This document shows, in pieces, positions 303 to 17,082 of a stretch of DNA of 64,000 bases. Source of the stretch: a virus. Its lineage: Duplodnaviria; Caudoviricetes. Within the stretch, counting starts at the first letter, position 1, and the number at the start of each line of letters is the position of its first letter. The notes beneath the pieces were generated by a model. The model made no database searches. It had not been told where the DNA came from and saw only the letters and a list, made by a program, of their open reading frames with translations. A program made the position numbers and the translations under genes. The DNA lies in IMG/VR virus record IMGVR_UViG_3300010429_002123; one strand, written 5' to 3'.

Positions 303-1544
303 TTACTCTCCTATCAGCCAGTATTTTCCCAGAGCCCTTGCAAACTCCGAATTTATAGAGGGAGGCATTTTATTGTCCCACTCTGCGTCTTCGGGGTTTT
401 CCTTGAGATACGTTTCTATTGCCGGGTGAAGGCTTTTTAAAGAAGAAACTTCCAATAAGTTAGACACGGTGTTTCTGAACCACGCCTGGTTGGACTTTGT
501 GGTAGATTTTCCGAAGTAATAAAAGTCTTTTGTAAACTCGCTCAGGTATTCCGGGTATTTTGCTTCGAGAGCACCTTTAAGGTCTTTATGTATCTTATCT
601 CTATCTCCGTCGTGTTTCTCAAGAAGTTCAACAAGCATGGTAGAACAATTGCTTGAGTAGCTACCGGCGTATATTGCCTGCCCATTTATTTCGAGATGGA
701 GTTTTCTTGCTAGAAGTTCGGTCATTCCTTCTTTTAAATAGTTAGCTTTGTCCATCTCATACCACCCTGTGTCTCTTGAATCAGAGGCTTTATTCATTTT
801 AATAGCCAGTTCCCAGGCTTTGGAGTTATTAGGGTCTTTAGCGTGTATGGACTCATGAATATCGTAATGACTTTCCTCTTCTCTCTCTGACTTATCTAAA
901 GCGAGAGATAAAGGGTTTAATAATATTTTATGGCTTTCTGAATCATAAAAGCCTCTTATGTTTTCCGCTTTGTTTGGGCTTAGCCCCAGACCTTCTGCGT
1001 ACTTGTCATAGTCAAATTCTTTTGTAATGTCGGGAATTGTTTTTCTGGTATTAAACTCTTTTTCCAGTCTTTGCCGGAACTGCTCATGTAATAACTGTCT
1101 GTTAAACCAGTTTCTTTCCATTTTTTGTTCTGATGAATCGTTTTTATAGTCTTTGTCCTGTTGGTAACCAGGTATTTTTGATATATCTAACTTTCCCTGA
1201 CTATCATAGGCATATACCTTTTTATTTTCCTCTAAAGCATACTTTACTTCTTCTTCTGTTAGACTTCCGTTCTTTGGTAAACTTGGGACATTTCCCGCAG
1301 CCTTCGGGGGGGAGGAGGTGTCTGAAGAGGTTCCTCTCTTTCCTCGGAGAGTTTCGTCTTTTTCTTTTATCTTTGCAAAGAGGTCATTAATTACATAGTT
1401 TTTGCTTTTATCTGGTCTTTTCCAGTTCCCGCTCCCGACACCCCCGTCCTTAGGAGGACCTCCCTCCGACAGTAGGAGGGTCAAGTAAGCTGGATTTGAG
1501 TAATTTTGTTCTGCCAGAAGAGTCTTAATTTCTTTAGTGTTCAT
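303..1544 (-). CDS. Zincin-like metallopeptidase paralog 1 (putative head-packaged internal protein)
   Basis: Leader NPAYLTLLLSE-GGPPKDGGVGSGNW, HESIH, EGMTELLARK. Confidence 0.75.
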   Translation of the reverse strand: MNTKEIKTLLAEQNYSNPAYLTLLLSEGGPPKDGGVGSGNWKRPDKSKNYVINDLFAKIKEKDETLRGKRGTSSDTSSPPKAAGNVPSLPKNGSLTEEEVKYALEENKKVYAYDSQGKLDISKIPGYQQDKDYKNDSSEQKMERNWFNRQLLHEQFRQRLEKEFNTRKTIPDITKEFDYDKYAEGLGLSPNKAENIRGFYDSESHKILLNPLSLALDKSEREEESHYDIHESIHAKDPNNSKAWELAIKMNKASDSRDTGWYEMDKANYLKEGMTELLARKLHLEINGQAIYAGSYSSNCSTMLVELLEKHDGDRDKIHKDLKGALEAKYPEYLSEFTKDFYYFGKSTTKSNQAWFRNTVSNLLEVSSLKSLHPAIETYLKENPEDAEWDNKMPPSINSEFARALGKYWLIGE

Positions 1545-1828
1545 AGTAATACACCTTTGTTTAATCCTTCCAGATAGGCTAATTGCACCGTTACGTCTCT
1601 TTCCATGTCGGGGTCTTCTTTGGCTACTTTATCCCGCAAGTCTCGAAGGGTTTGCAGTTCCTCTTCGGTTGCTTTCTTCCCCACGAGTCCTGCTCTTATC
1701 TGAAACTGCTGGTAGGGACTCCTCTTATTTAAGTAATCGTTCAAGACTTTTGGGTTCATCATCTGTAATTCGTGTTGAGGTTTCATGTGTCTCAATTCTC
1801 TCCTTCCCTTTTTTAAAGTAGGTCTCAT
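1541..1828 (-). CDS. Small partner protein of the zincin array
   Basis: C-terminus LAYLEGLNKGVLL resembles five other small ORFs. Stop overlaps the zincin start (ATGA). Start may be ATG 1786. Confidence 0.65.
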   Translation of the reverse strand: MRPTLKKGRRELRHMKPQHELQMMNPKVLNDYLNKRSPYQQFQIRAGLVGKKATEEELQTLRDLRDKVAKEDPDMERDVTVQLAYLEGLNKGVLL

Positions 1829-2543
1829 CTTTTTCGAAGCATATATATCTACGTCCGGTATTCAGGCAGGCAATAGCTGTAGTGAAACTTCCTGCACAGG
1901 TGTCCAGGACAATATCGTCTTCGTTTGTGTAGCTTTTTATTAAAAACTCAAATAGACTGATAGGCTTTTGTGTGGGGTGAAATTTTGCCTTTTTGTCCCT
2001 GGGAAATCTCTGAATTGATGATGGGTGTCTATCTCCGGTGTTTACTGTCAGGTAACCAGAACAGTCAGCACCCTGCAGGTTTGGTCTTTTGCTGTTACCG
2101 GCTTTACAGGTATAGGGCAAGCCTGCTGTCTTCTGGGGGAAGTATTTCATATAGTTCTGGGATTTTGTGAAGGTTGTGGCACCATAACCAAAAACCAGGA
2201 CGTGTTCGTGCTTACGGAAAGGTTGCCAGTTCACGCTTGTGAAGTTAGTGCCGTTGTCTTTCTCCCAGACCCATTCGTATTTGAACATGTCCAGATTGCT
2301 CATGACCAGGAAGGAAGAAAAGGGATTTGTTGCCGTTAGCACGATGGCACCATCCGGGGTTATGAGTCTTTTGGATTCACTCCAGAACTCTTCTATGTCT
2401 ATGGGTAAGTCCCAGAAATTACCTGTGACCCTGTTTCTATTTTTCATGGAATAAGGTAAGTCTGTTAACAATAAGTTTATACTTTTATGAGGGAGGTCTT
2501 TCATAAGTTCAATACCATCACCCCACTTTATATGAGAGTTCAA
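1725..2543 (-). CDS. N6-adenine/N4-cytosine DNA methyltransferase (beta-type order)
   Basis: Motif IV TDLPY, HPTQKP, motif I VLDTCAGSFTT. Confidence 0.9.
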   Translation of the reverse strand: MNSHIKWGDGIELMKDLPHKSINLLLTDLPYSMKNRNRVTGNFWDLPIDIEEFWSESKRLITPDGAIVLTATNPFSSFLVMSNLDMFKYEWVWEKDNGTNFTSVNWQPFRKHEHVLVFGYGATTFTKSQNYMKYFPQKTAGLPYTCKAGNSKRPNLQGADCSGYLTVNTGDRHPSSIQRFPRDKKAKFHPTQKPISLFEFLIKSYTNEDDIVLDTCAGSFTTAIACLNTGRRYICFEKDETYFKKGKERIETHETSTRITDDEPKSLERLLK

Positions 2544-2812
2544 CGTATACAGTCCCCTTCGTAATGATATTCTACTTCTACTACTGTCGGGTGCTTTTCC
2601 CAGAGCAAAACACTTATGTCCCCGGGAGGCAGTGTGTCAAATTCTTCTCGCGTGCCTGCGAGGGTTTCGAGAACCTGTTCATAAGACATGTCTATGTCTC
2701 TCAGACCGTGTTCACCATCAGAATGATACAGTGTCCATTTTATTTTCCTATGGGCTGGAGACACACCGAGAGCTTTCATATAAAAACTTCCTGTGTTTAG
2801 CTTAAAAACCAT
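2540..2812 (-). CDS. Hypothetical protein
   Basis: 90-aa ORF packed between neighbours in the same orientation. Confidence 0.5.
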   Translation of the reverse strand: MVFKLNTGSFYMKALGVSPAHRKIKWTLYHSDGEHGLRDIDMSYEQVLETLAGTREEFDTLPPGDISVLLWEKHPTVVEVEYHYEGDCIR

Positions 2813-4239
2813 TTTATAAGTTTTCCCTCCATGTCTGTGGCAGAAGATTCTCTTCGACTCTTATTAGACCTGAAACCCTGGAGTTTATCCCCGGATTTTA
2901 TGCGGGATATTTCCATTTCTATTATATCTTCATCATATTTGAACTCGGAATTACGCATTTGTTCTCGGATTTCGTCGAGTTCCTTTTCCGTTCTGGGACG
3001 AACGCTGTGATACTGTTTTAAGTCGGAGTCATCCACTACATTATACTTCCTCAGGGTCTCCAGAAGTTTTGGGTAGGTGTCCGGGTTATTTAAGGCTTCT
3101 ACTCCATATTTCAGTGAGCGGGCAAAGTCCAGCACTTCCGGTCGTTCTGCTGTGCGGAGAGATTTTAACTCTTTGTGAATGCTTTCTTTGTCCCCTTTGT
3201 GTCTTTCGACCATGTTTGCAAGGGTTACTATGACTTCGTCTTGATAAGAACCCTTTTTTAAGTCCTCAACGTTCGCTCCGGCTATTTTGTCAGCTACAAA
3301 CTTTCGTGAAAGTAATTCCGTTACGCCTTCTTCTTTGTTGAGGTTTATGGGCTTGTAGTATTCTTCTATATAGTTTGGTAATTTTTCTGTTCTTATTCCC
3401 AGCTCTTTCATCTTGTTCTGAAGGGCTTCTTTAGACGGGAAGGTTTCCCCCGATATTTCCAGAACGGCGTCCAGTTGTGTTTGAGAGAAGGGATTTCTTT
3501 TTCTTCCTCCCTGGTTATCGAAGTTATCGTTAGTGTCTCTCATAAAGCGTAGAACAGAAAATGGGACAGTGTATTCCGGGGGAACTAACTTACCGTCCGG
3601 GTTTCCTACAGAACTGAGAAGAGTTTGTCTGCCGTTATCCTCCGTTTTTGCCACGGCGTGGACTAGCTCGTGAACGAGTGTCCCTGTGCTTTGAATTGTG
3701 GTTTCTTTTAAGTAGCCTTTTTCTGTATTTTGTCCTATACACTGTATGTCTTCGTCACGGTAGACTACCAGAGGTGCCCCCTCTCTTTTGCAGAAAGCCC
3801 CCACAAAAAAGATTGAGCTCACAGTTGCGTCTCTGCTGTAAAGGGATGCAAATTCCTCTGCAGACTTTGTTAATACGCTTCGAATTTCACCGGGGTCAAA
3901 CTTTATTTCTTTGATTAACTGTTCTTTAACGGCTTCGAGCAAGACGGAAGTATTTTTTCGAGCCTTTTCTGACCTTACTTCCGAGGAATCCTGGGGAGAG
4001 ATTTCCTGCCAGCCTTTTAACTTCTCTTTTGTTATTTTTCCAGCGTTCTCTCTGTTTTCGATGTCTCTCTGAATAATCTTGTTAAAGAACGGGTTACTGG
4101 TCTCCGGTCGTTTCCAGTTCCCGCTTCCTATACCGCCGTCTTTCGGGGGACCCCCCTCCAGCAGGGTCTTGACCCTGACGGTTAAAGAAGCAGGGTTTGA
4201 ATAACCCATAGTTTTTAATTCCTGAAAAAGATTTTGCAT
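2797..4239 (-). CDS. Zincin-like metallopeptidase paralog 2
   Basis: TLLE-GGPPKDGGIGSGNW, HELVH, EEGVTELLSRK. Confidence 0.75.
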   Translation of the reverse strand: MQNLFQELKTMGYSNPASLTVRVKTLLEGGPPKDGGIGSGNWKRPETSNPFFNKIIQRDIENRENAGKITKEKLKGWQEISPQDSSEVRSEKARKNTSVLLEAVKEQLIKEIKFDPGEIRSVLTKSAEEFASLYSRDATVSSIFFVGAFCKREGAPLVVYRDEDIQCIGQNTEKGYLKETTIQSTGTLVHELVHAVAKTEDNGRQTLLSSVGNPDGKLVPPEYTVPFSVLRFMRDTNDNFDNQGGRKRNPFSQTQLDAVLEISGETFPSKEALQNKMKELGIRTEKLPNYIEEYYKPINLNKEEGVTELLSRKFVADKIAGANVEDLKKGSYQDEVIVTLANMVERHKGDKESIHKELKSLRTAERPEVLDFARSLKYGVEALNNPDTYPKLLETLRKYNVVDDSDLKQYHSVRPRTEKELDEIREQMRNSEFKYDEDIIEMEISRIKSGDKLQGFRSNKSRRESSATDMEGKLIKWFLS

Positions 4240-4240
4240 G

Positions 4241-5683
4241 TTAATCCTCCTTTAGAAACCACCGTAAGAATTTTTCTTCTACCATAGTGTCCCGCCTGAA
4301 CCCTTTAGCCCGCAGGGTTTCTCTGCCTTCTTTTTCTTGTTTTTTAGTCAGCCTTACCCCGGATTTCCTGAGGGTTTCCATTCGTGCGTCTATCTGCTCT
4401 TCTGTGAGCGGTTTTGGAATGTCGTCATAGTCCTGCTGGGTGATGATTCCGTGTTTCAGAGCCGAGCCCATCATGTGAAAGTATGTTTCCTGGTGAGATA
4501 AACCCTCTACACCGTATTTAAGAGAGTAAGTCCAGTTTTCAACGTCTTCGTCGCTCTGGCCTTTTCTTAAGTCTTTCAGTTCTTTTAAGACGGAGTCGCG
4601 GTTACCCTGGTGTCTTTCTATCATGTTTCCGAGAGTAACTATGCACTCATCTTGATAAGCCCCCTTTAAAAAGCCGGGAGAGTCCTCAAGAGTTTCTTTT
4701 GTAAACTTTCTTGCCAGAAGTTCTGTGACAGCTTCTTCTTTGTTCAGCTTAACAAAAGTAGGGCGTTCCAGATGTTCGTATGGGGAAGAAGATGTTTTGT
4801 CTTTTAAATCTTCCGGGTCTATTCCTATGGCTTCAAGTTTTTTAAGGAGTTCAGGAAGAGATTTCTGGCCTTCTATTCGGCTGACAGCGTCAAGCTGGTC
4901 TTTTGAATATTTCATACCCTCCCGTTTTATGAACTGATTTGTCTGGTCAAATGGAAGTTTTTCCCCTTCCTTTACAATATCTTTTAACATAGTGTAGGCT
5001 TTATACGTAGCTTTGTAATCTTTCTCAATGGCGTTTATTGAGTTTGATACTGTCATAAGGTTAGAAGGACTCCCATCAGGTTTTCTCCCCAGACCGTGCA
5101 AAACCTCATGTGCTAAAGTTCCCACTTCTTCCCCTCGTTTGTTACTTTCCCATTTATCTGTCCCGCTCAAGGTTAAGGCCGTGGCCATCTTATATACAGT
5201 AAGAGGAGGATTTGTTCGAGTTAAGCAGAAGGCGTGAATACCTGTCATCTCTCCCTCTGGTTTTCCGAATCTTTTAGCGAACTCTTCCATGTCTTTTGCT
5301 ACCATAGCGTCTACAGGCTTTGTTTCTATTCCTAAAAAGTTACTGCAGAGCCTGTTTGTTACTTCTGTGTTAAGAATTTTTAGGTTAGATGTAGCTATCC
5401 TTTGTTGGGTTGCGAGAGGCTCGTGCTCCATACTTTCCCAGCCGGATAACTTTTTAAAGTCTAACTTGGGTGGGGGTTCCTGAGTGCCTCTTTTTCCTTT
5501 TTGTTCCTCGTCTCTTTTTCTTATAAGGTCAAATATAGGATTAGAGTGTCTTTTCCAGTTCCCACTTCCTATTCCACCATCTTTCGGAGGACCACCTTCA
5601 GAGAGTTTGTTTTGCACAAGAAGAGTTAAGTAAGAAGGGTTACTTGTCCCGCTCAGTGAAAAAATGCTTTTTAATCTATTCAT
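4241..5683 (-). CDS. Zincin-like metallopeptidase paralog 3
   Basis: Start moved to ATG 5683, which follows AAGGAGG. KLSE-GGPPKDGGIGSGNW, HEVLH, EEAVTELLARK. Confidence 0.75.
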   Translation of the reverse strand: MNRLKSIFSLSGTSNPSYLTLLVQNKLSEGGPPKDGGIGSGNWKRHSNPIFDLIRKRDEEQKGKRGTQEPPPKLDFKKLSGWESMEHEPLATQQRIATSNLKILNTEVTNRLCSNFLGIETKPVDAMVAKDMEEFAKRFGKPEGEMTGIHAFCLTRTNPPLTVYKMATALTLSGTDKWESNKRGEEVGTLAHEVLHGLGRKPDGSPSNLMTVSNSINAIEKDYKATYKAYTMLKDIVKEGEKLPFDQTNQFIKREGMKYSKDQLDAVSRIEGQKSLPELLKKLEAIGIDPEDLKDKTSSSPYEHLERPTFVKLNKEEAVTELLARKFTKETLEDSPGFLKGAYQDECIVTLGNMIERHQGNRDSVLKELKDLRKGQSDEDVENWTYSLKYGVEGLSHQETYFHMMGSALKHGIITQQDYDDIPKPLTEEQIDARMETLRKSGVRLTKKQEKEGRETLRAKGFRRDTMVEEKFLRWFLKED

Positions 5684-5776
5684 AAACTGTTTGCTCCTCC
5701 TTATGAAAGGCTCATTAACACTTATTATAACATATTTTGTTAGTTTCTCACAGAGGATAGTCAAGAGGTTAAAGGT

Positions 5777-7219
5777 TTATTTTCCTGAGGAAAGAAACCA
5801 CTCTAAGAGTTTTCCTTCTATATTAGACCCTTTGTAGTCTCTGTCGGAACGGAAGTCAAAAAGCTGTTCATCTTTTAGTTTTTGAAGTTTAGACGCCCTG
5901 TATTCCTCCCGGCCTTTTCTTTCTTTCTCTCCGTATTCTCTTATGAATTCTTCATCCTCTTTTTTCCACTCTTTCTGCAGTTCTTTTATTTCGTCATCGG
6001 TACGGGGTCTTACTTTATCGTAGTCAGAAAGGTCATTATCCGAGATGATATTGTGTTTCCTTAGAGTCTTTAGTAAGTCGGGATAAACTTTAGGGTCATC
6101 CAGAGCTTCTATGCCGTAGGTAAGAGAGTCTGAAAATTCTCTCACCTGTGCCCACTCTTTCTGACGAATATTTTTTAATTCGGCGTGAATGGTCTCTTTG
6201 TCATTTCCGTGCTTTTCCACCATGTTAACCAGCATGGCAACACACTCTTCCTGGTAAGCACCCCCAAGAAGCTCTTTTGGGTTCACTCCTGTTATCTTGT
6301 CTACTACAAACTTTCGCGAGAGAAGTTCCGTGACCGCCTCTTCTTTGTTCAGGGTAATCCTCTCACGGAATTCTTCGGCTATTGGTAAACCTGGGGGAAG
6401 TTTTTTCATGTTTATGCCCTTGTCTATCATAGCCTGCCTGAGGGCTTCTTCCGAAGGATACCGCCCGGTGAAATTCTCTACGGCATCAAACTGTTTCAGA
6501 GAATAGGGTCTTTTTACTGGAGTGTCGTTCTCTCTTGCTTCTCTTTCAGCCTGCTTGATGGCCTGGCTCATGGCGAAGTAAATGTCACTGCTTAACGTGT
6601 ATTCTACGGGAATATGCTTCCCGACAGGGTTGGGGGCTGTGAGGAGAGGGCTATGAAACCCGCCGAGACCTTCTGACAGATTAGCCATGCCGTGTATCAT
6701 TTCGTGTACGAAGGTGTTTATTACTCTGGTTTCCGTGTTACTGAAGTAACCTTTTTCAGCGTTACCCCCGACAGTTTGGGCATCTTCGTTTCGATATACT
6801 AATTTTGATGGGTTTCCCCACCTACAAAAAGCGTGTACACCCAGACTACTATCGTGCCAAAAAAGAGAATCAAATTCTGCGTCTGTCTCAGTAATAAGGG
6901 CTGTCATGTTTTTTGGGGAGGTAAACTCCTTCTGAAGAGAGGAGTTTAGTTTTGACAGAAGAATGTGGGCATTATTCCTCGCCGTTACGGCCTTCTCTTC
7001 AGGGGAACCCTCGGGTATTTTCCAGCCCTGTAAGTTTTTGGGATTAATTTTACCCTCTCTATTTTCCATATCTCTGGCTATTATCTTAGCAAAAAATGGA
7101 TTGGAGGGGGTTTTTTCTCTCACCCAGTTTCCCGAGCCAATTCCTCCGTCTTTTGGAGGACCCCCCTCGTTTATTTTTTGTTTAATGAGTAAAGTTAAGT
7201 AGAGAGGGTTTTGCCCCAT
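5777..7219 (-). CDS. Zincin-like metallopeptidase paralog 4
   Basis: KINE-GGPPKDGGIGSGNW, HEMIH, EEAVTELLSRK. Confidence 0.75.
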   Translation of the reverse strand: MGQNPLYLTLLIKQKINEGGPPKDGGIGSGNWVREKTPSNPFFAKIIARDMENREGKINPKNLQGWKIPEGSPEEKAVTARNNAHILLSKLNSSLQKEFTSPKNMTALITETDAEFDSLFWHDSSLGVHAFCRWGNPSKLVYRNEDAQTVGGNAEKGYFSNTETRVINTFVHEMIHGMANLSEGLGGFHSPLLTAPNPVGKHIPVEYTLSSDIYFAMSQAIKQAEREARENDTPVKRPYSLKQFDAVENFTGRYPSEEALRQAMIDKGINMKKLPPGLPIAEEFRERITLNKEEAVTELLSRKFVVDKITGVNPKELLGGAYQEECVAMLVNMVEKHGNDKETIHAELKNIRQKEWAQVREFSDSLTYGIEALDDPKVYPDLLKTLRKHNIISDNDLSDYDKVRPRTDDEIKELQKEWKKEDEEFIREYGEKERKGREEYRASKLQKLKDEQLFDFRSDRDYKGSNIEGKLLEWFLSSGK

Positions 7220-7467
7220 TATACTTTCACTCCTTCAGGTAAACCCTGTGCTATAGAGAGTCTAAGCAACAGCTCCTCATAGTATTCAGGTTCTGTCTGC
7301 ATAATCTTTGGTAAGAGTTCTTTAAAAATAGTCATTTCTTCTGGTGTGGGCTTTCTATCCAAAATGTAGCCCATACGGGTTTTAAACTGGTCTGCAGGAG
7401 AAGACTCTGCCTCTTTAAAATATTGCTGAAGTTCTTCTTCGCTGAGTCTTTCTATTTTTTCTTCCAC
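7219..7467 (-). CDS. Small partner protein of the zincin array
   Basis: C-terminus LSIAQGLPEGVKV. TAATG overlap with the downstream zincin. Confidence 0.7.
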   Translation of the reverse strand: MEEKIERLSEEELQQYFKEAESSPADQFKTRMGYILDRKPTPEEMTIFKELLPKIMQTEPEYYEELLLRLSIAQGLPEGVKV

Positions 7468-9160: not shown

Positions 9161-10284
9161 TTTAGCATCTCCTTTTCCAGCAAGGGACTTATTCCGGCGT
9201 GCTCCCTTGTGTTAAACTCTTCTCTTTCTTTTTTTCGTCTTTCTACAAAGTTCTGTATAAAAGTCTCAGGGAGTTTTTTAGTTCTGTATAAGGCCACGCT
9301 TTTTTCTGTTTCTTCTTCAGAAAGCATAATCCTTACGTCCTCTTCCCCTTTGAATAGCTTGTCTATGGCTTCTTTGATTCCTTCACTTATCTTAGGACTT
9401 TTTCTTAGCTCTTTTAAGTAGTAGTCAGTATTTCCTTTATCCATATTTTTTATGTCTGTGTCTTCAATAGCTGTCTCCAATTTGCTTCTCCCATCAAGAA
9501 TCTTTCCATAGCGTTCGGAACCTGTGTCATTCAGAGAAACCCCAGAAACTCTAGCGTTTTTTAATATGTCAAAGATTTCATCTTTATCCGGGTATTTTAA
9601 CATTAGTTGGAAGAGCATGGGAGTAACAATATCCTGGTAGCAACCTTCCAGCATGTCTTCTGGTTTCACCCCTTCTACTCTTCCCGCACAAATTTTTCTG
9701 GCGAGAAGTTCTGTCAGCCCCTCTTCCATAAATTTCGCCTTTTCGGGGTCTTCTCCCCAGCCACCATAACCCTCTTTCCCTACGGCGTGTAGAAGTTCGT
9801 GAACAGGGGTGTTATAAAAATTGTATTTACTATCACTCAGGGCTGTTTCGTTGATGGCTATAAAGTTTCCTTTACTGTATACACCGAATATATGCTTTTT
9901 TTCTTCGCTGTAGAGTTTGCCAAACTCGTCTGCAGTTTTACAAACAAGAATACCTCTCCCTATAGGTAGGCTTTCCTCCAAGTCAAATTCTTTCTCGAGT
10001 GTGGTTTTCCACTCTTTACTGAATAGGTTCATATTATTATAATGTTTTTCTTTTTTCTGAGCCTCAGTATCAGAATCTGTTATTTTTTGCCAGCCCGTCA
10101 GTTTTTCCGGGTTTAAGGTGTCGCCTTCCCAGGCAGTTTTGTGTCTTATCCAGTTACCTGAGCCCACACCCCCGTCTTTTGGAGGACCCCCTTCTGTAAG
10201 TAAGACGGTGAGATATGCGGGATTAGTATAGCCCAAAGTAGAGAGGTATTCTTTTAGTTCTTTTATTCGTGTCACTCCGGTCAC
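9142..10284 (-). CDS. Zincin-like metallopeptidase paralog 6
   Basis: LLTE-GGPPKDGGVGSGNW, HELLH, EEGLTELLARK. Confidence 0.75.
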   Translation of the reverse strand: MTGVTRIKELKEYLSTLGYTNPAYLTVLLTEGGPPKDGGVGSGNWIRHKTAWEGDTLNPEKLTGWQKITDSDTEAQKKEKHYNNMNLFSKEWKTTLEKEFDLEESLPIGRGILVCKTADEFGKLYSEEKKHIFGVYSKGNFIAINETALSDSKYNFYNTPVHELLHAVGKEGYGGWGEDPEKAKFMEEGLTELLARKICAGRVEGVKPEDMLEGCYQDIVTPMLFQLMLKYPDKDEIFDILKNARVSGVSLNDTGSERYGKILDGRSKLETAIEDTDIKNMDKGNTDYYLKELRKSPKISEGIKEAIDKLFKGEEDVRIMLSEEETEKSVALYRTKKLPETFIQNFVERRKKEREEFNTREHAGISPLLEKEMLKWFLEK

Positions 10285-10362: not shown

Positions 10363-10485
10363 TCAAGCATCGAATGTCTCTCGGTTTTTACTCTGTAAGG
10401 CTCTTCTCTCGGCGTATAAAGAGTATTTTCCATAGAAAAACCCGGCAAAAGCCGTAAGTAAAAGAGTTAATGCAAACAAAATCAC
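10363..10485 (-). CDS. Possible 40-aa single-pass membrane peptide
   Basis: GTG start overlaps the upstream stop. Reads MILFALTLLLTAFAGFFYGKY...; below the ORF-track size cutoff. Confidence 0.35.
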   Translation of the reverse strand: MILFALTLLLTAFAGFFYGKYSLYAERRALQSKNRETFDA

Positions 10486-10700
10486 TACACCATGACTCCT
10501 TTAGGAAGACCATCTAGAATAGCTATTTCCGGGGCGTGTACAGCTATTTCTGGGTCGAGTTCACAGAGTACCTTAAAAAGATTTTTAAAGGGCTTTTCAA
10601 TTCTTTTATAAAACTCTTTGTCCAGTTTACTTTGAAGAAGCTGGTCACGAAAGACCTCTTTCATCATCTCTATCTCTTTTTCTGTCATTTTCTTGTCCAT
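10485..10700 (-). CDS. Small partner protein of the zincin array
   Basis: ATG after GAGGTG. C-terminus EIAILDGLPKGVMV. Close paralog of 13784..14005. Confidence 0.75.
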   Translation of the reverse strand: MDKKMTEKEIEMMKEVFRDQLLQSKLDKEFYKRIEKPFKNLFKVLCELDPEIAVHAPEIAILDGLPKGVMV

Positions 10701-10721
10701 ACTTTTCACCTCTTTAATAAT

Positions 10722-10770: not shown

Positions 10771-12234
10771 TTAGTCTTTATCGGGCTTCAGAAACCACTT
10801 TACTAACTTTTTCTCTAATCTGGGCTGTCTTTCAAAATCTAATTTATCTAAAGTTTTTTTATACTCTTTTAAGTCTTCTTTTGAATAACTGTAGGCGAAT
10901 TTAGCGAATTCCATCGCTTTTTTCTTTTCGTCGGGGGTCAGTTTTCCCCACCGAATGTCCCCAAATTCCTTTTCAGAAATTATACCATGTTCTTTAGCTT
11001 TTGTCATTATATGTTTGTAATTGAGTGGGCTATTCAGGGCTTCTATCCCATACTTTAGAGAGTTTGACCAGTCCTCCACGGTTTTTTTGTCCCCGGTTTT
11101 AGCCCCCTTTAAGTCCTCAAGGATACTATCTCTGTCTCCGGCGTGTTTTTCCAGCATATTAGCAAGAGTCACAACGACTTCGTCTTGATAACTGCCTAAA
11201 TCGGGAATGTGGGCATCTGAGAAATACTCAACAGTAAACTTTCTTGCCAATAACTCTGTGACAGCCTCCTCTTTGTCTAAGTTTATAGAAGTAACGTTTC
11301 TGGCAGACTTAAAGGGGTCATTTGTGTCTTTGCCCTTTAAATCCTCGGGGTCAAATCCTAGTTTTTCCGCCTGTTTTAAAAAGGCGGAAAGACTCTTTTG
11401 TTCCGGGATAAGAGCGAGGTTATTTAACTGACCAAGAGTATACTTCATCCCCTCTCTCCTGCCCCCGAACAAGTCCCCAGACAGTTCGTAAGCCTGATTA
11501 AACATCTCTCTGGACATCTTAAAAGTCGGTGGAATAAGGGTGTTATTCGGGTTTATAGCGTGGGCTAATTCCGACCCTACAAACTGTCCTTCAGCAGTCT
11601 TTGCAATTCCATGAAGGTACTCATGGGCTATAACCGTAAACTCCCCGGTTACTGTTGGCGAATAAGGTTGCTCATTAGAGAGGTTTTCCATAGTAGAAGG
11701 TTGAAAGCACGCTGTTGGAAGTTTGTTTGGGTAACCTGCCAGTTCGCAAAAGGCATAAAAATTTCTATTGTTATAGTTTTCACCGAATCTTTTTTCAAAT
11801 TCTTCTTTGGTCTGAGCCATGAAAATGTTTACTGAAGGTGTCTGAATTTTTAAAAAGTCCTGGCAGAGCCTGTTGTGGACTTCTGTAGCCAGTATTTTAG
11901 TATTTGCGTAAGATTTTATCTTTTTTGTCTCTTCTGAATCAGAATCCTTTAGTTTCTGCCAGCCGGGCAGGTTTTCAAGGGAAACTTTTTCAGGTCTGGT
12001 TTCCTGGTGACGGCTCCCTCTTTGTCCCCGTAGGAGCTCGTCGGCCTGTTTTATTCTGTCGAAGAAAGGGTTTATGGTGGCAGAAGGACTTGTATGTCTT
12101 ATCCAGTTTCCCGAACCTATTCCACCATCCTTAGGGGGTCCACCCTCGGAGAGTTTGTTCTGTATGAGTAGAGATAAATAGGCAGGGTTTTCTTTCCCAA
12201 GATTTTTAAGAATTTCTTTTGTTGTCATCAGCAA
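10771..12234 (-). CDS. Zincin-like metallopeptidase paralog 7
   Basis: KLSE-GGPPKDGGIGSGNW, HEYLH, EEAVTELLARK. Confidence 0.75.
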   Translation of the reverse strand: MLMTTKEILKNLGKENPAYLSLLIQNKLSEGGPPKDGGIGSGNWIRHTSPSATINPFFDRIKQADELLRGQRGSRHQETRPEKVSLENLPGWQKLKDSDSEETKKIKSYANTKILATEVHNRLCQDFLKIQTPSVNIFMAQTKEEFEKRFGENYNNRNFYAFCELAGYPNKLPTACFQPSTMENLSNEQPYSPTVTGEFTVIAHEYLHGIAKTAEGQFVGSELAHAINPNNTLIPPTFKMSREMFNQAYELSGDLFGGRREGMKYTLGQLNNLALIPEQKSLSAFLKQAEKLGFDPEDLKGKDTNDPFKSARNVTSINLDKEEAVTELLARKFTVEYFSDAHIPDLGSYQDEVVVTLANMLEKHAGDRDSILEDLKGAKTGDKKTVEDWSNSLKYGIEALNSPLNYKHIMTKAKEHGIISEKEFGDIRWGKLTPDEKKKAMEFAKFAYSYSKEDLKEYKKTLDKLDFERQPRLEKKLVKWFLKPDKD

Positions 12235-12236
12235 TG

Positions 12237-13787
12237 TTACCTTTCTAAAAACCAGTGAAGAATTTTCGATTCCAGGTCATAGTCTCTTCTCACTTTTATT
12301 CCTCGTAAAGTCTTTTCCTCGGCGGTCAGGCGGGACGTTTTCTCTTCTTTTGAAAACCATTTTGGGAACGCTTGTTCTGATTCTTTTAAACGGGCATTTA
12401 ACTCTTCTTTTGAATAACTTCCTTTTATAGAGTCAAATTCTGTAGCTGAGATTACTCCGTGTTTTAAGGCTGAGGTCATCATGTGTTTGTAGACTTTCTC
12501 GCTGTTTAGAGCCTCTACGCCATACTTTAAAGAGTTTGCCCATGACTGGACGGAAGGAATGTCCCCGTTTCGAGCCTGTTTTAAATCTTCAAAGGCCGAT
12601 TTTTTGTCTCCCCCGTGCTTTTCCAGCATGTTTCCAGCGAGAACCAGACTGTCATCATGGTATGAAGTCATACTGTCAGACAGACGTTTTGAATCTGCTG
12701 TGGGAACGTTTTCAAGTGTAAATTTTCTGGCTAAAAGTTCCGTGACAGCCTCCTCTAAGTTTACTTTAATGGGAGAAGAAGACTTTAAATTCGAAAAGGG
12801 GTCTTCAGACGTCCCTCTTTTTAAGTCCTCAGGGTCAATGCCTATTTCTTTTACTCTGGAGAAAAGGTCTTCCAGGCTGTTCGCCCCGTGGGTAGACAGC
12901 TCGTCCCGTAGCCATGATAATTTTTCAAGCTGAGAACGGGAATACTTTCTCCCTTCGGCATCTTGCACACGTCCTAGAGCCAGCTCTGTCTCTATTGGAA
13001 TGGTAAAAGTGGAATCTAATTCACTTTTTGGGAGAGACACGGAGAGGAGAGCAGGTAAGTCGTCTTTTCTACTTTCCGGGAGAGCATGTAAGAGTTCATG
13101 TGCCAACACTTTATATCTGTCTGCTGTGGTGTTTTCATCTTCCCCACTCATCTCCCTTGCGGTAATGTCGGAAAATACTACCAGTGGGGGGTGTTTACTT
13201 CTGTCGCAGAAGGCGGGAACACCTGTGCGGTCGTCTCTTCCCCTGAGTTGGGAAAACTCCAGGTCGTCTACCACAGCTATTTGAAAGGTAGTGTCTTTTA
13301 TGCTTAGCAAGTCGGCACTTACTTTTCTCGCCACGTCCCTTGCTACGAGTTTCAAATTGTGTGTTTCTTTTTGCAGTCTTCTTTCTGGAGAGTCCTCTTC
13401 TCTATTTATAATCTCCCACCCTTTAAGGGTCTGGGGGTAAGAAGGAGGCTTTCTTGGGGTTGATATGGGAGACTTCGTCGAGGAAGTCGGAGAAGAGTCA
13501 GCGTTGTGCAGGTCAGAAAGAATGTCTCCCCCCGTAAGAAGTGAAAACAAGTCCTCAAACTCCTTGTCAGATTTCTCTTTTTCTTTTCTCTCAATGTCCC
13601 TCTGGATTATGCTATTAAAAACAGGATTGTTAGACGTGTGTCTTATCCAGTTACCACTCCCAACTCCTCCGTCTTTCGGAGGACCTCCTTCGGAAAGAGC
13701 ACGAAAGACAAGAGTAGACAGATATACAGGGTTGCTGTGCTTTTTTTCCTGCAGTTCGCTTATGAGTTTGCGTATGTCCGTTCTCAT
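12237..13787 (-). CDS. Zincin-like metallopeptidase paralog 8
   Basis: ALSE-GGPPKDGGVGSGNW, HELLH, EEAVTELLARK. Confidence 0.75.
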   Translation of the reverse strand: MRTDIRKLISELQEKKHSNPVYLSTLVFRALSEGGPPKDGGVGSGNWIRHTSNNPVFNSIIQRDIERKEKEKSDKEFEDLFSLLTGGDILSDLHNADSSPTSSTKSPISTPRKPPSYPQTLKGWEIINREEDSPERRLQKETHNLKLVARDVARKVSADLLSIKDTTFQIAVVDDLEFSQLRGRDDRTGVPAFCDRSKHPPLVVFSDITAREMSGEDENTTADRYKVLAHELLHALPESRKDDLPALLSVSLPKSELDSTFTIPIETELALGRVQDAEGRKYSRSQLEKLSWLRDELSTHGANSLEDLFSRVKEIGIDPEDLKRGTSEDPFSNLKSSSPIKVNLEEAVTELLARKFTLENVPTADSKRLSDSMTSYHDDSLVLAGNMLEKHGGDKKSAFEDLKQARNGDIPSVQSWANSLKYGVEALNSEKVYKHMMTSALKHGVISATEFDSIKGSYSKEELNARLKESEQAFPKWFSKEEKTSRLTAEEKTLRGIKVRRDYDLESKILHWFLER

Positions 13788-14005
13788 ACCATTACCCCTT
13801 TAGGAAGACCGTCTAGAATAGCTATTTCCGCCCCGTGACAAGATATTCGGGGGTCGTATTGGATAAGTTCAGTATATAGTTTTTTAAAGGGCTTTTCAAT
13901 CTCTTTGTAAAAGTTTTTGTCCAGTTTGCTCTGGAGAAGCTGGGCTTTAAAAAGCCTCCTCATGTTTTCTAGTTCTTTCTCGGATTTTTTAGGTAACTTT
14001 CCCAC
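13784..14005 (-). CDS. Small partner protein of the zincin array
   Basis: C-terminus EIAILDGLPKGVMV. ATGA overlap with the downstream zincin. Confidence 0.75.
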   Translation of the reverse strand: MGKLPKKSEKELENMRRLFKAQLLQSKLDKNFYKEIEKPFKKLYTELIQYDPRISCHGAEIAILDGLPKGVMV

Positions 14006-14006
14006 A

Positions 14007-14204: not shown

Positions 14205-14218
14205 GACATATCTACCTC

Positions 14219-15622
14219 TTAATCTTCCTTTATATTATAGAACCATTTTAGAATGGCCTCTTCAGTGCGTAAAGACCTCTGGGGAGAATACTTTTTCTTG
14301 TTCACCATTTCAGCGACCTCATGAGGCTTTAACCCCGATTTGTTAAGTGTGTTCATGTAACTTGAAAGCACACTTTCAGGAAGGTTACTTCTCTCCCTGT
14401 AATTTTGAAGTTCTTTGCTGTCTATTATACCATGTTTATGGGCTGTTTCCATCAGGTGCGTATAAGCTTGTTTATTATTAAAAACTTCAATACCAAACTT
14501 TAATGAATTCGCAAAGTCCTGGTTTTCTTTTTTTCCACCCATACGAGCAGTCTTTAAGTCTGAAAGAGCGGAGTCTCTATCCCCCTGATGTTTGTCCAAC
14601 ATGTTTGCAAGAAGAGCCACGGTTTCAAGAGGGTAGTTACCCTCGGTAAGAAATTTTGAACTCGTGTTTCCAATAAGTTCCTTAGTATAATGCCTTGCTA
14701 AAACTTCTGTGATGGCTTCTTCTTTATCGAGGTCTATTCTACTGTGTTGACCCAGTTTAGAGGAGTCTATATGTGCGAGGTTTATACCTACTTTTTCAAT
14801 CTCTTTTATGATTGCCTCTTCTGTGGGTCGAGTTCTGTAAGAGAGTCTGTTTACTTGTTCTTCCGTGTATAGCGGGTTACCGTTTTCGTCTTGTAATTTC
14901 AACAGTGCCTGACGGGTTTCTAAGGGTACGGAGTAGGCTCTTGGGAAAGTTTCTTTTGTGTTGGGTGTTGCACTGACATAAGTGTCTCCTTTGGAGGCAA
15001 GAAAGTCTGCTTCAGAAACGGCTTGCGGGGGAATAGCATGTATGTTTTCGTGCACAATAACGGAAATAGCCCTTTGCTGGTCTTCGGACAGAGTTCCTTC
15101 TATCTGGCCTATCTCCATAGAAGTATCAGCTTTAAAAACGGTAGAGATAGGTGTTCTGTTTCTGTTACAGAAAGCCACAATTCCTATGATGTTACCCTGT
15201 CCGAACAGTCTTTGAAACTCTTCAGAGGTTTTGGTCTGTATGATATTTAAGTTTTTCGGATTTGTTCCCAGTTCTTTGGAAAGCCTGTTGTGTAAGTCCT
15301 CCGCAAAAATCTTTGCGTTAGAAAAAGATTTGTTTTTTCGTGTGTCTTCCGAGTCTTCGGCGGATATTTTTTGCCAGCCCTCCAGAGTTTCCAGAGGTTT
15401 CTGAGCCTCTTTCACGGGGGGTAAATGAAGAGCCCAGTCTCTGTCGATGAGTTTATTAAAAATCGGATTATTACTTGTGTGTCTGGGGTAGTTTCCACTA
15501 CCTGGACCATCGGCAGAGGGTGGTCCTCCCTCGGCTAACTTTCTGGAGACAAGAAGAGTCAGTGTGGCGGGGGAAGAGTAACCTTCATTCTTTAACATAG
15601 AATACAAACAAGAATTAAGCAT
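14219..15622 (-). CDS. Zincin-like metallopeptidase paralog 9
   Basis: KLAE-GGPPSADGPGSGNY (variant), HENIH, EEAITEVLARH. Start set at ATG 15622. Confidence 0.75.
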   Translation of the reverse strand: MLNSCLYSMLKNEGYSSPATLTLLVSRKLAEGGPPSADGPGSGNYPRHTSNNPIFNKLIDRDWALHLPPVKEAQKPLETLEGWQKISAEDSEDTRKNKSFSNAKIFAEDLHNRLSKELGTNPKNLNIIQTKTSEEFQRLFGQGNIIGIVAFCNRNRTPISTVFKADTSMEIGQIEGTLSEDQQRAISVIVHENIHAIPPQAVSEADFLASKGDTYVSATPNTKETFPRAYSVPLETRQALLKLQDENGNPLYTEEQVNRLSYRTRPTEEAIIKEIEKVGINLAHIDSSKLGQHSRIDLDKEEAITEVLARHYTKELIGNTSSKFLTEGNYPLETVALLANMLDKHQGDRDSALSDLKTARMGGKKENQDFANSLKFGIEVFNNKQAYTHLMETAHKHGIIDSKELQNYRERSNLPESVLSSYMNTLNKSGLKPHEVAEMVNKKKYSPQRSLRTEEAILKWFYNIKED

Positions 15623-15635
15623 GAGTCGTTCCTTT

Positions 15636-15824
15636 CTAAACAATAACTCCTTCTGGGACTCCGTAGGTGAGAGCTATTCTAAGTTCTGCTCTTCCTAAAT
15701 CTTCAGGTTTTTCTTTTTCTATTCTTTTTCTGAGCTCTTCTATTTTCTTTTCCTGTGACTTTGTAATGTGCCCCTCTTTTAAGTCATTAAGATAATTATA
15801 TAAGTCGTCGATTGGATTTGACAT
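15636..15824 (-). CDS. Small partner protein of the zincin array
   Basis: C-terminus IALTYGVPEGVIV. Confidence 0.65.
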   Translation of the reverse strand: MSNPIDDLYNYLNDLKEGHITKSQEKKIEELRKRIEKEKPEDLGRAELRIALTYGVPEGVIV

Positions 15825-15825
15825 T

Positions 15826-17082
15826 TTAGTTCCCCTTTCTTAGCCAATGTGTTATAAGTGCCTTATGTAAAGTGTCTGAATATTTTGGATTTTCTGAGTC
15901 TGGTCTTGCATATCTGTCTTTCGCAAGTCTCTCTGAGTCTTCTTTTAAATATGTTTTTATTGCTTCTTTTACAGGGAGGAGGTCAGGGTTATCTGTTTTG
16001 TCTATAAGAGCCTGAAGTTTCTCTTTAAAGGCCGTCTGGGAACTCCACATCTTTCCCCTGTATGCCTGGTTGCTTTTTGTGACAACAGGATAGTCGGCCA
16101 TAAAAGCGGAAAGGTGTTCCCTTGAGGGAGAAAGTAATGCCCCTTTTATTTCCTCGTATAGCTTAGAGGTATCCCCATTATGCTTAAGAAGTCCCTGAGT
16201 GAGTAAGAGGGTAGTCTCAAGTTCATAACAGTGAAAGTGAGGGGGTTCGTCCGTAAGAGAGGTAATTACTTTTCCAGCAAGAAGTTCGGTAATTCCTTCC
16301 TGCATACTTCTGGCTCTCTCCTTTGTCTCCTCCCCCCTGACGAAACCAAAATCAGCCCTACGGACAGCTTCTTCCCAAGTCCAGCCATCGGAGCCTTCTC
16401 TTCTATTGTTGTCTTTGGCATGTATTGACTCGTGAACTATAACAGAAGAGGGATTGTTGCACTTAGATTCTCCCCGTGAAGTTGTGGGGTCTATATAGAT
16501 ATTGCCCGTATCTGCTTGATAAAAGCCTAGAATACTTTGAAGTGGAGGTATGCCTCTTTTTGGGTCATAAGATTCGGAAAATTCTTTGTATGAGTCCGGG
16601 ACAATAAGGTCTTTAATGTTCCTCCCTGAAGGGAACTCCTGGTCAAGGTACCGACGGAAATGTTCCTGAAAGAGTAGACAGTTGACCCGGCTTTTATCCT
16701 GTCTCATTTTTATGCCATCATCGGGGGTGATTTCTAGAAAAGGGATTTTACTCTTATCTAACTTGCCATCTATAATAGCGGTAACTTTTTTGTTCTCTTC
16801 AATAGCTTTTTGGGCGAGTTCAGCAGAGAGTCTTACCTTGTCTTTTTCCGGGGTAGGAAACCTTTTCTCCCAGTTAGCTTTGTATTGTTCCCAGTCAAAA
16901 TCGTCAAGGTCATCTTTTTTGCTCCTTGCCGGGTTTGGTTTTTCCGGTCTTATCCAGTTTCCTGAACCTACCCCGCCATCTTTTGGGGGACCACCCTCAA
17001 AAAGTTTTCGACGGAGAAGTAAAGAGAGATAAGAAGGCATAGAACAGCCGTTTGTTCTTAGTGTTTCTGTCAGATTAATCAT
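15826..17082 (-). CDS. Zincin-like metallopeptidase paralog 10 (first gene of the operon)
   Basis: KLFE-GGPPKDGGVGSGNW, HESIH, EGITELLAGK. Confidence 0.75.
   Translation of the reverse strand: MINLTETLRTNGCSMPSYLSLLLRRKLFEGGPPKDGGVGSGNWIRPEKPNPARSKKDDLDDFDWEQYKANWEKRFPTPEKDKVRLSAELAQKAIEENKKVTAIIDGKLDKSKIPFLEITPDDGIKMRQDKSRVNCLLFQEHFRRYLDQEFPSGRNIKDLIVPDSYKEFSESYDPKRGIPPLQSILGFYQADTGNIYIDPTTSRGESKCNNPSSVIVHESIHAKDNNRREGSDGWTWEEAVRRADFGFVRGEETKERARSMQEGITELLAGKVITSLTDEPPHFHCYELETTLLLTQGLLKHNGDTSKLYEEIKGALLSPSREHLSAFMADYPVVTKSNQAYRGKMWSSQTAFKEKLQALIDKTDNPDLLPVKEAIKTYLKEDSERLAKDRYARPDSENPKYSDTLHKALITHWLRKGN

Follow-up and report, generated by a model that had tools for sequence, protein, structure and literature searches.

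An uncultured phage with a genome of about 234 kb encodes ten diverged zinc-protease-like paralogs on the minus strand, at positions 303-17097 of the window (the whole 64,000-nucleotide stretch analyzed here). We consider it fairly probable that these genes represent a new and very rare family, resembling gluzincin-type metallopeptidases, that serves as capsid cargo. The proposed route combines leader docking, cleavage by an S77 protease, ejection and a small partner protein. Loading of the zincins into the capsid and their cleavage by the S77 protease are probable, and the evidence for this part is good.

Organization of the zincin array

The ten zincins are 380-516 aa long and share 23-37% identity in a full-length alignment. 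A preliminary description of this DNA had reported ten paralogs of this size with HExxH and a downstream E..TE motif, which was borne out in every detail. An identical (100%) 216.8-kb contig from another sample has the 413-aa gene as its final paralog, and the array is complete at ten. Six small genes without a leader tag, not mentioned in the preliminary description, are interleaved among the zincin genes (Table 1). A DNA methyltransferase gene also lies within the array, and one distant zincin homolog (P0012) is likewise coupled to a DNA methylase of the N6_N4 type.

Table 1. Zincin array and head-gene features, by position in the window
Feature	Coordinates	Strand	Remarks
Candidate sigma-70-type promoter	17118..17146	-	Upstream of p10; TTGACA-17-TATAAT, 12/12, with TG; consensus match only
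Zincin p10	15826..17097	-	Subfamily B; first in array; leader ...KLFE-GGPPKDGGVGSGNW; HESIH
Small partner gene a	15636..15824	-	62 aa; 1 nt past p10; overlaps p9 start
Zincin p9	14219..15643	-	Subfamily A; variant tag GGPPSADGPGSGNY
Small partner gene b	13784..14005	-	73 aa; overlaps p8 start
Zincin p8	12237..13787	-	Subfamily A; 516 aa
Zincin p7	10771..12234	-	Subfamily A
Small partner gene c	10485..10709	-	74 aa; gene b is a close paralog
Zincin p6	9142..10284	-	Subfamily C; minimal form, 380 aa; part modeled, pLDDT 85.5
Small partner gene d	8966..9160	-	64 aa; 19-nt overlap with p6 3' end, as in MuF-zincin loci
Zincin p5	7487..8941	-	Subfamily B; linker rich in Pro/Lys/Glu after tag
Small partner gene e	7219..7467	-	82 aa; abuts p4 start
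Zincin p4	5777..7219	-	Subfamily A; shortest leader, 18 aa, ...KINE-GGPP
Zincin p3	4241..5683	-	Subfamily A; 480 aa from gene-caller Met in L004; longest ORF to 5764
Zincin p2	2797..4239	-	Subfamily A
N6_N4 DNA methyltransferase within array	1725..2543	-	PF01555, E 4e-28
Small partner gene f	1541..1828	-	95 aa; overlaps p1 start
Zincin p1	303..1544	-	Subfamily B; last in array
T4-type portal protein (gp20-like)	25558..27312	+	MLLE-G at residues 11-15
Prohead protease	27357..29492	+	Peptidase_S77, gp21-like, residues ~29-176, fused to acidic coiled-coil scaffold-like region
Gp23-type major capsid protein	29530..30873	+	HLTE-G (25-27), IVLE-N (36-39), SLEE-A (51-55) in N-terminal propeptide region

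A predicted zincin core

All ten paralogs keep HExxH together with a downstream Glu and Tyr. With numbering from the first protein (p1), the residues invariant among them are P18, E27, GGPP, G35, GSGN, R43, H230-E231-H234, E272, T275, E276, Y296 and K323. Across 21 sequences, which include 11 distant homologs, the only columns without variation are those of the Glu and second His in HExxH, the Glu in EG.TELL and one Tyr; in one of the 11 (P0010) an R replaces the first His. Among the ten paralogs the distance between the second His and the Glu ranges from 22 to above 100 residues; in the distant homologs it is at least 13.

Two structure models were obtained (pLDDT 75.7 and 85.5). In the pLDDT 85.5 model a helix is followed by three strands, the HExxH helix (residues 99-114) and a Glu helix (126-148), the arrangement by which the zincin core has been defined (PMC5512222). 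The Glu helix is predicted to carry the putative third metal ligand, the Glu of (E/K)EG.TELL that is invariant in the 21 sequences. A structure-only search with model 1 matched LTA4 hydrolase (Z 9.9, rmsd 3.7, 182 aligned), tricorn F3 (Z 9.7) and thermolysin (Z 7.3). Model 2 matched tricorn F3 (Z 9.2, rmsd 4.1, 175 aligned), PSA (8.6), LTA4H (8.3) and thermolysin (7.2). Both models matched gluzincins almost exclusively, the top ~22 rows being zincin catalytic domains at Z 6-9.9, where values of 8-10 count as 'middling' on the search tool's scale. Comparison with zincin families, a check suggested in the preliminary description, thus returned gluzincin-type matches with HExxH...E...Y intact. 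Foldseek gave no match at E<=0.001 for either model. A profile search of PDB sequences ranked an M48 peptidase first (E 0.0055), spanning a strand and the HExxH helix. Viral fold matches were MuF-type 'minor capsid' and polyvalent proteins, and were weak (E 0.05-0.3).

On these models the ten proteins are predicted to have a zincin (gluzincin) core that is M1/M4-like. Such a fold is no proof of peptidase activity: YbeY and TAF2 occur in the same match lists. The best structural matches, M1/M4 gluzincins (LTA4 hydrolase, aminopeptidase N, tricorn F3 and thermolysin), share HExxH, a Glu in an 'EG' context and a Tyr, but show no significant sequence similarity to this family, which lacks the M1 N- and C-terminal domains and GxMEN and, with the distant homologs included, has a His-to-Glu spacing of 13 to more than 100. 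Membership of the M1 aminopeptidase family was ruled out, there being no Pfam M1 match, no GxMEN, no HExxH-x18-E spacing and no flanking M1 domains. The likeness to M1 is limited to the catalytic core.

The zincin-like MPTases of polyvalent proteins, which include ArdC and fall into 12 published clades (PMC5512222), resemble the array proteins in core fold and in the variable insert that separates the two catalytic helices. The resemblance extends to being associated with DNA methylases and with ADP-ribosyltransferases, and to a predicted delivery with invading DNA. The array proteins have the core and the variable insert, and their structural matches to polyvalent proteins are weak. They are single-domain and stand-alone, whereas the MPTases are domains of giant polypeptides. 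Searches with the ten paralogs found the family in neither Pfam nor PHROGs. It is previously unclassified and extremely rare.

Leader, tag and links to the phage head

Each zincin begins with a leader of 18-38 aa, the length varying with start codon choice, that has the pattern P..L.LL and ends in [L/I]-x-E immediately before GGPPKDGG(I/V)GSGNW. The endings are LSE, LLE, LSE, INE, LSE, LTE, LSE, LSE, LAE and LFE, exactly as first listed. Seven more tagged genes, none of them a zincin and none noted in the preliminary description, lie elsewhere in the genome. Genome-wide, all 18 tag instances (in 17 proteins with two unrelated leader types) are preceded by [L/I]-x-E. Inside the tag motif, identity at third codon positions is 41% and Ser alternates between AGY and TCN codons. 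Synonymous sites thus vary freely, which indicates that the tag peptide itself is under selection.

The T4 protease gp21 cleaves on the C-terminal side of L/I-x-E, taking off capsid-targeting sequences (PMC9026906), as the preliminary description had stated, and the gp21-like protease that it had noted is indeed encoded here. This protein matches PF03420 (E 7e-12) and T4 gp21 in BLASTP (E 6e-11), with the His/Ser/Asp positions conserved, and is a candidate processing enzyme for the tagged proteins. The major capsid protein, the protease and the portal protein each contain L-x-E-G in their first 30 residues, compared with ~5% of other genes. A matching LEE-A site had also been claimed for the capsid protein. 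The sequence S-L-E-E-A is present at residues 51-55, but in a pairwise alignment the known T4 LTE-A capsid site falls opposite IVLE-N (residue 39), leaving the true cleavage site ambiguous.

A close parallel is the T4 system of IPI-III and Alt, with its capsid-targeting sequence (CTS) and gp21 (PMC9026906, PMC3012670). The two phages share gp20, gp21 and gp23 homologs, a leader ending in L/I-x-E, diverse proteins with only the leader in common and a proposed route from core docking through cleavage to ejection. The T4 IPIII CTS has 10 residues (PMC9026906), whereas the leader here has 18-38 aa in two helices and is two to three times longer, with no sequence similarity evident between them. 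Immediately past the predicted cut site there is a Gly-rich, near-invariant peptide of 16 residues that T4 lacks. T4 cargo consists of small basic proteins or an ADP-ribosyltransferase, in contrast to the ten paralogous zincins predicted as cargo here. The giant phages phiKZ, 201phi2-1 and SPN3US (PMC9026906, PMC5694885) are likewise large and have families of paralogous head proteins that a gp21-related protease cleaves C-terminal to Glu, a step that is predicted here. Their sites are S/A/G-x-E and their cargo is proven by mass spectrometry, whereas the L/I-x-E sites of this phage are read from its sequence. They are not known to carry a zincin array or a Gly-rich tag.

The peptide GGPPKDGG.GSGNW had been taken simply as the sequence that follows the cut. 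It is instead the most conserved part, and in other phages the extended tag is preceded by Lys, not Glu. This argues that the peptide does more than mark a site for S77 and serves some separate function. In another phage, three of four tandem ADP-ribosyltransferases (L001; Alt-like) are headed by the same extended tag. One protein encoded near a terminase gene (P0024) has the tag at two internal junctions. Another (P0030), whose gene sits between those for portal and capsid in a 38-kb phage, has L-x-E-GGPGSG four times and lacks a zincin domain.

A further link to the head comes from the zincin domain itself. Seven distant homologs (P0009-11, 13, 15-17) are Phage_Mu_F fusions in which the zincin is the C-terminal module. 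In four of the five MuF-zincin loci read, the gene directly follows the portal gene; for the fifth (L012) no portal gene lies within the fetched stretch. None of the ten array zincins has a MuF (PF04233-type) domain match. The occurrence of the domain in MuF/SPP1-gp7 head proteins beside a portal gene provides a connection to capsid cargo that is independent of the leader.

The array is ~8 kb from the head genes and on the opposite strand. Together with the perfect sigma-70-type match upstream of p10, this makes early expression possible, and the array may be expressed early in infection. The same features would suit intracellular host-takeover or anti-defense enzymes that are made early and stay out of the capsid altogether. 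The leader with its tag would then be some other module shared by several phage proteins, such as a regulatory, localization or degradation signal. We regard this as unlikely. All 18 tags obey the P3/P1 rule of the phage's own type of head protease, and other phages have the domain as part of MuF head proteins. The tag is also present within P0030, with its gene between portal and capsid, and on Alt-like ADP-ribosyltransferases. As for gene position, T4 internal-protein genes also sit outside the head gene cluster.

The tag at internal junctions raises another reading, in which the zincins do not attack host proteins and are processing enzymes that cut tagged cargo or polyproteins at Gly-rich junctions. 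Zincin-like MPTases have been predicted to process multidomain phage polypeptides (PMC5512222). This reading is improbable, since it would require ten paralogs at 23-37% identity for one near-invariant site, and P0030 has four junctions and no zincin domain. That the tag comes after Glu in this T4-type phage but after Lys in other phages points instead to the head protease, and conserved partners are more typical of effectors that need restraint.

Partner genes and the proposed route

The six small array genes have a homolog at every MuF-zincin gene examined, in the form of a small gene overlapping its 3' end. An HMM built from the six proteins ranked this 3'-overlapping gene first in four other loci, among 474 six-frame ORFs (E-values 6e-8, 5e-4, 0.03 and 0.09). 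A conserved small partner gene adjoins the zincin in six phage lineages. The small genes and zincins look like a conserved enzyme-partner module, in which the partner is perhaps an immunity or inhibitor protein. Complex prediction for p6 with small protein d gave a median score of 0.47 (runs 0.47, 0.42 and 0.80), against 0.00 for the best control; among 80 solved complexes 58 attain the mark for this score, but only 7 of them at <=0.60, and of 110 mismatched pairs 2 attain it, both at <=0.60. Contact agreement between runs was at least 95% and the partner pLDDT at least 80. These predictions lend weak support to a pairing of p6 with d. Co-variation between partners and zincins was not significant (47/720 permutations equal or better).

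MuF polymorphic toxins, in which MuF/SPP1 gp7 with a C-terminal toxin is followed by a small immunity ORF (PMC5576092), share with the array both the zincin domain and the homologous small gene; ~20% of MuF toxins have a metallopeptidase (PMC5576092). The array zincins are unfused to MuF and stand alone behind the leader and tag. MuF toxins are typically single-copy and from temperate phages, whereas ten copies are found here in a large phage with a T4-type head. The conserved partner, its arrangement like that of MuF toxin-immunity pairs (PMC5576092) and the weakly supported p6-d complex would fit polymorphic-toxin-like modules of toxic zincins paired with immunity proteins, used for competition with other phages or bacteria or for killing or disabling cells and not for counter-defense. 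We hold this to be a poor prospect as a separate explanation. Four zincins have no adjacent partner, and the reading differs from the capsid-cargo explanation in target only, being compatible with capsid delivery. Secretion would be another way to account for a helical hydrophobic leader ending in L-x-E-G-G, with the leader acting as a bacteriocin-type double-glycine signal that a C39 peptidase/ABC exporter cleaves behind GG. This is highly improbable given a hydrophobic residue at -5 and not -4, a -3 residue that is always Glu in this phage but Lys in others, the occurrence of the junction inside head-module proteins and no exporter found within the window.

The capsid-cargo route that we infer, from docking, cleavage, packaging and ejection to partner binding, proteolytic activity and targets, would run as follows. 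The two-helix N-terminal leader would dock each zincin to the scaffold or core of the T4-type prohead, much as the capsid-targeting sequence does in T4. The S77 (gp21-like) protease would then cut after [L/I]-x-E, removing the leader and exposing the conserved, disordered GGPPKDGG.GSGNW.R. The mature zincins would be retained inside the head and pass into the next host along with the DNA. In the producing cell the six small untagged proteins would bind zincins as cognate inhibitors, immunity proteins or chaperones. That the zincins cut host defense proteins, as the preliminary description had suggested, is speculation.

A bolder form of this proposal is possible but doubtful. The ten zincins in the capsid would be a set of diversified zinc proteases, and each would act on a different target once injected into the host. 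Until then a matching small inhibitor, which does not leave the producing cell, would keep each of them inactive. The Gly-rich peptide, once bared by the head protease, would be a general 'cut-and-expose' signal with its own function in retention or ejection, shared with ADP-ribosyltransferase cargo and with scaffold polyproteins of unrelated phages. What is new for this family is the zincin domain as a MuF C-terminal module, the same tag on an ADP-ribosyltransferase array and the conserved small partner genes.

The zincin array and its predicted fold

Ten long open reading frames (ORFs) on one strand encode paralogous proteins, p10 from the first gene of the array to p1 from the last. The proteins align end to end at 23-37% identity, and all ten keep an HExxH motif, a downstream E..TE(L/V)L(A/S) helix, a tyrosine and a C-terminal K/E-W-F-L motif. 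They fall into subfamilies A (p2, p3, p4, p7, p8 and p9), B (p1, p5 and p10) and C (p6). The preliminary description, ten paralogs with HExxH, leaders and a tag, proved exact when ORFs and alignment were re-derived. An IMG/VR record of 183,650 bp, with an estimated completeness of 78%, has this window at its end. The identical phage turns up in both digester and wastewater metagenomes. Contigs from other samples, up to 216.8 kb (~234 kb in cluster metadata), are 100% identical across the array, and the longer ones show that it ends at ten zincins. A 72-bp tandem repeat (3.1 copies, 92% match) sits just downstream of the last paralog, at the record end, and a longer related contig continues beyond it. 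Among 50,697 cultured-phage records, neither megablast nor tblastn detected a relative of the array or of any zincin.

Features of the window and of loci in other phages
Feature	Position	Strand	Remarks
Tandem repeat	1-217		
Zincin array, p1-p10	303-17097	-	
Small gene f	1541-1828	-	partner family
N6_N4 DNA methylase	1725-2543		within array
90-aa ORF	2540-2812	-	
Small gene e	7219-7467	-	partner family
Small gene d	8966-9160	-	partner family; overlaps p6
p6, minimal zincin paralog	9142-10284	-	within array
Small gene c	10485-10709	-	partner family
Small gene b	13784-14005	-	partner family
65-aa ORF	14007-14204	-	
Small gene a	15636-15824	-	partner family
207-aa ORF	24493-25116	+	
T4-type portal		+	PF07230, E 7e-65
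Prohead protease	27357-29492	+	711 aa; first ~180 residues Peptidase_S77, E 7e-12; protease domain 27357-27950
Gp23-type capsid protein		+	E 9e-64
2675-aa ORF	35974-44001	+	
ADP-ribosyltransferases	L001:265-3400		four tandem paralogs (PF03496); 3.4-kb contig, another phage
P0024	L002:1403-2848		481 aa; near large-terminase gene
P0012 locus	L007:440-2871		zincin homolog, 456 aa, overlaps methylase stop codon
P0030	L015:8001-10889		962 aa; four L-x-E/GGPGSG junctions (slash, putative cut point)

Pfam, PHROGs and NCBIfam scans assigned no family to the ten proteins and gave only sub-threshold matches, to PF25196 (DPC4_C) on the Gly-rich tag and to Peptidase_M91 for p10 (E 0.005). Among 1.84 billion representative proteins, a profile search matched 21 only, and 8 of these were the phage's own. 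AlphaFold models were obtained for p1 (pLDDT 75.7) and, from a 21-sequence alignment, for the minimal paralog p6 (pLDDT 85.5, pTM 0.83). In both, an N-terminal helix is followed by a three-stranded sheet, the HExxH helix and a second helix with the conserved Glu, an order that equals the defined zincin core (PMC5512222). Foldseek against the PDB found nothing at E<=0.001 for either model. When 48,161 chains were searched by structure only, nearly all matches to either model were gluzincins, with Z-values that are middling on the tool's own calibration: LTA4 hydrolase (Z 9.9, rmsd 3.7, 182 aligned), tricorn F3 (9.7), lugdulysin (8.0) and thermolysin (7.3) for p1, and tricorn F3 (Z 9.2, rmsd 4.1, 175 aligned), PSA (8.6), LTA4H (8.3) and thermolysin (7.2) for p6. 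M61, M9 and M36 peptidases, anthrax LF, SprT and ArdC came lower in the lists.

A profile search of PDB sequences ranked an M48 peptidase first (E 0.0055). In the alignment of 21 sequences, invariance is limited to two HExxH residues (its Glu and its second His), the 'EG.TELL' Glu and a single Tyr, which would supply the metal ligands, the general base and the transition-state Tyr of a gluzincin. Despite the middling Z-values, the predicted assignment is secure at the superfamily level because of the uniform match list and the sequence signature. The zincin identity first proposed from sequence has thus held up against predicted structures, with gluzincin matches and an intact signature, and is well supported for the ten paralogs; zinc binding and peptidase activity are predictions. 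The tag of the ten paralogs and of a further protein, P0020, gave repeated sub-threshold matches to PF25196 (best E 4e-4), a 30-residue C-terminal motif of diatom pyrenoid component 4. This match is probably low-complexity convergence.

Leader, tag and candidate protease

The zincins start with a leader that contains P..L.LL in 10/10 paralogs and ends in LSE, LLE, LSE, INE, LSE, LTE, LSE, LSE, LAE or LFE. The tag GGPPKDGG(I/V)GSGNW.R follows directly, with one paralog carrying the variant GGPPSADGPGSGNY. In the p1 model the tag region is disordered (pLDDT <50 at residues 30-50). The whole genome has 18 tag instances, spread over 17 proteins: the ten zincins and seven non-zincins at genome 92-105 kb, one of which carries the tag twice. 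In the non-zincins, the leader is an unrelated acidic coiled coil and the tag takes the core form GGPGSG. In 18/18 instances [L/I]-x-E stands directly before the tag. In T4, internal proteins lose their capsid-targeting sequences when gp21 cleaves after L/I-x-E (PMC9026906). Two possible sources of motif conservation at the DNA level, gene conversion and a DNA element, were considered. Third codon positions within the motif are only 41% identical, and Ser is encoded by both AGY and TCN codons; this free synonymous variation excludes both sources, and the peptide is therefore held by protein-level selection.

Three head genes lie on the plus strand from ~25.5 kb. The gp21-like protease claimed in the preliminary description is borne out by the Peptidase_S77 match and by alignment to T4 gp21 (E 6e-11), with His, Ser and Asp positions conserved. 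An acidic coiled-coil region of ~500 residues is fused after the protease domain; in T4, protease and scaffold are separate genes. This region holds >20 [L/I]-x-E sites and a Cys-rich patch (CEVCGNLESECECGKEC). L-x-E-G occurs within the first 30 residues of the major capsid protein, protease and portal each, and in ~5% of other genes. The nearest cultured relatives of the capsid protein are T4-like cyanophage proteins, at only 29% identity. A capsid LEE-A site had also been proposed. The sequence is present, as SLEE/A at residues 51-55; as the true cut site it is plausible only, since pairwise alignment places T4 LTE/A (E65/A66) opposite IVLE/N at capsid residue 39. HLTE/G lies at residues 25-27, and because the alignment to T4 is poor here, any of the three could be cut.

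Two further ORFs accompany the head genes. The 207-aa ORF just upstream of the portal has the C-terminus CSRCG...CEKCG, which resembles a TnpB/OrfB nuclease fragment at its zinc-ribbon end. A single 2675-aa ORF lies downstream of the major tail gene; its only match is a sub-threshold one to SHOCT, and it is probably the tape-measure protein.

The extended tag occurs very rarely. Among longer proteins, a profile of the tag alone recovered it from this phage lineage, L001 and P0024 only, and a core-tag search found P0030 and P0032 only; with 6-16 residues, a motif is too short to be significant in a set of 5.8 billion sequences. Searching the full text of the literature for GGPGSG returned no phage paper. 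On L001 the extended tag heads 3/4 tandem ADP-ribosyltransferase paralogs, which begin with a hydrophobic leader and K/GGPP..G.GSGN[WY]; the fourth and a preceding 121-aa gene begin ...VK/SGN.NSGSW, a variant tag. By sequence, this set would be an Alt-like 'arsenal' parallel to the zincins on a different enzyme. P0024 carries the extended tag at two internal junctions (...K/GGPPGPGPGSGNY), and its gene is 1.3 kb from that for the large terminase; its C-end is a Cys-rich, zinc-ribbon-like tail (CPLCGW...CVNPDC). In both L001 and P0024 the residue preceding the tag is Lys, not Glu. The four junctions of P0030 lie between its modules; in its 38-kb phage, the P0030 gene has the portal gene on one side and the decoration and capsid genes on the other. 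P0030 has no Pfam domain and no assignable protease domain, and on gene position alone looks like a protease/scaffold polyprotein.

The tag junction resembles a site at which head-internal proteins are processed, with the P1 residue differing among phages. What is conserved is the Gly-rich peptide after the junction, which must have its own function. Capsid loading and S77 cleavage of the ten zincins is the best explanation, and we consider it moderately probable on several independent, purely computational lines.

MuF-linked homologs and small partner genes

Distant homologs P0009, P0010, P0011, P0013, P0015, P0016 and P0017 combine an N-terminal Phage_Mu_F domain (E down to 7e-28) with a C-terminal zincin domain. 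The MuF-zincin gene immediately follows the portal gene in 4/5 loci read; the fetched stretch of the fifth (L012) contains no portal gene. MuF/SPP1 gp7 proteins are portal-bound head components, MuF fusions are regarded as injected toxins, and ~20% of these fusions carry metallopeptidases (PMC5576092). Among predicted viral structures, the best (weak) matches are MuF-type 'minor capsid' and 'head morphogenesis' proteins, phage 'lethal factor'-like zincins and polyvalent proteins. The fusions suggest that the zincin family is capsid-associated in other phages via another address label.

The standalone distant homolog P0012 is translationally coupled to an N6_N4 DNA methylase. This coupling echoes the methylase-zincin association of polyvalent proteins (PMC5512222). 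Very basic, Arg/Lys-rich small proteins follow P0012. In the array, the 90-aa ORF between p2 and the methylase has no domain and is unrelated to the small-partner family, and the 65-aa ORF between p9 and small gene b has two CxxC pairs (zinc-ribbon-like) and sub-threshold Pfam matches only. A sigma-70 consensus promoter-like match (12/12) precedes the first paralog. TATAATAAR, found before array, capsid and tail genes, was dropped as a shared timing promoter: genome-wide it also precedes unrelated genes, often with a -35 box, and so is uninformative on expression timing.

Interspersed among the zincin genes are six small ones (62-95 aa). Four overlap or abut the start codon of the next zincin, and one overlaps the stop of the preceding zincin by 19 nt. 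Their products form one family with the C-terminus ...DP.Y....IA.L.G.P.GV.V, no Pfam match and no tag. In 5/5 MuF-zincin loci, a 65-123-aa gene overlaps the zincin 3' end by ~19 nt. When an HMM of the six window proteins only was run against 474 six-frame ORFs, MuF-locus genes ranked 1-4 (E 6e-8, 5e-4, 0.03 and 0.09) and the fifth ranked 7. Zincin and small gene are arranged as toxin and immunity genes are in MuF pairs (PMC5576092).

Complex prediction for p6 with the product of small gene d gave a median score of 0.47 (runs 0.47, 0.42 and 0.80; best control 0.00), where the mark is reached by 58/80 solved complexes and 2/110 mismatched pairs, and passing scores at <=0.60 come from only 7/80 solved complexes and both passing mismatches. 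The runs show at least 95% contact agreement, with partner pLDDT of at least 80. These models lend weak support to a p6-small gene d complex. The small proteins group as b and c; a, e and f; and d. Neighbouring zincin-partner pairs are concordant by subfamily, at a level not significant in a permutation test (47/720). The partner may act as an inhibitor or immunity protein that stays behind in the producer cell; alternatively, it may be a chaperone for folding or loading.

Implications of a possibly packaged zincin set

Three described themes come together here: T4 capsid-targeting sequence cargo, toxin-immunity pairs of the MuF type and polyvalent-protein zincins. In form the set is undescribed, since the zincin family is new and occurs in ten stand-alone copies, with a Gly-rich tag and a conserved partner. 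Zincin action on host defence proteins is unsupported speculation. If packaged and active, the ten would be the largest known protease set from one virion and a natural zincin library for bacterial targets, possibly including defence proteins. The small partner is a handle for inhibitor discovery, and the tag could serve engineered protein delivery via T4-like heads. One enzyme family with three delivery solutions (MuF fusion, leader plus tag, and polyvalent protein) would mean that phages swap 'address labels' on their cargo.
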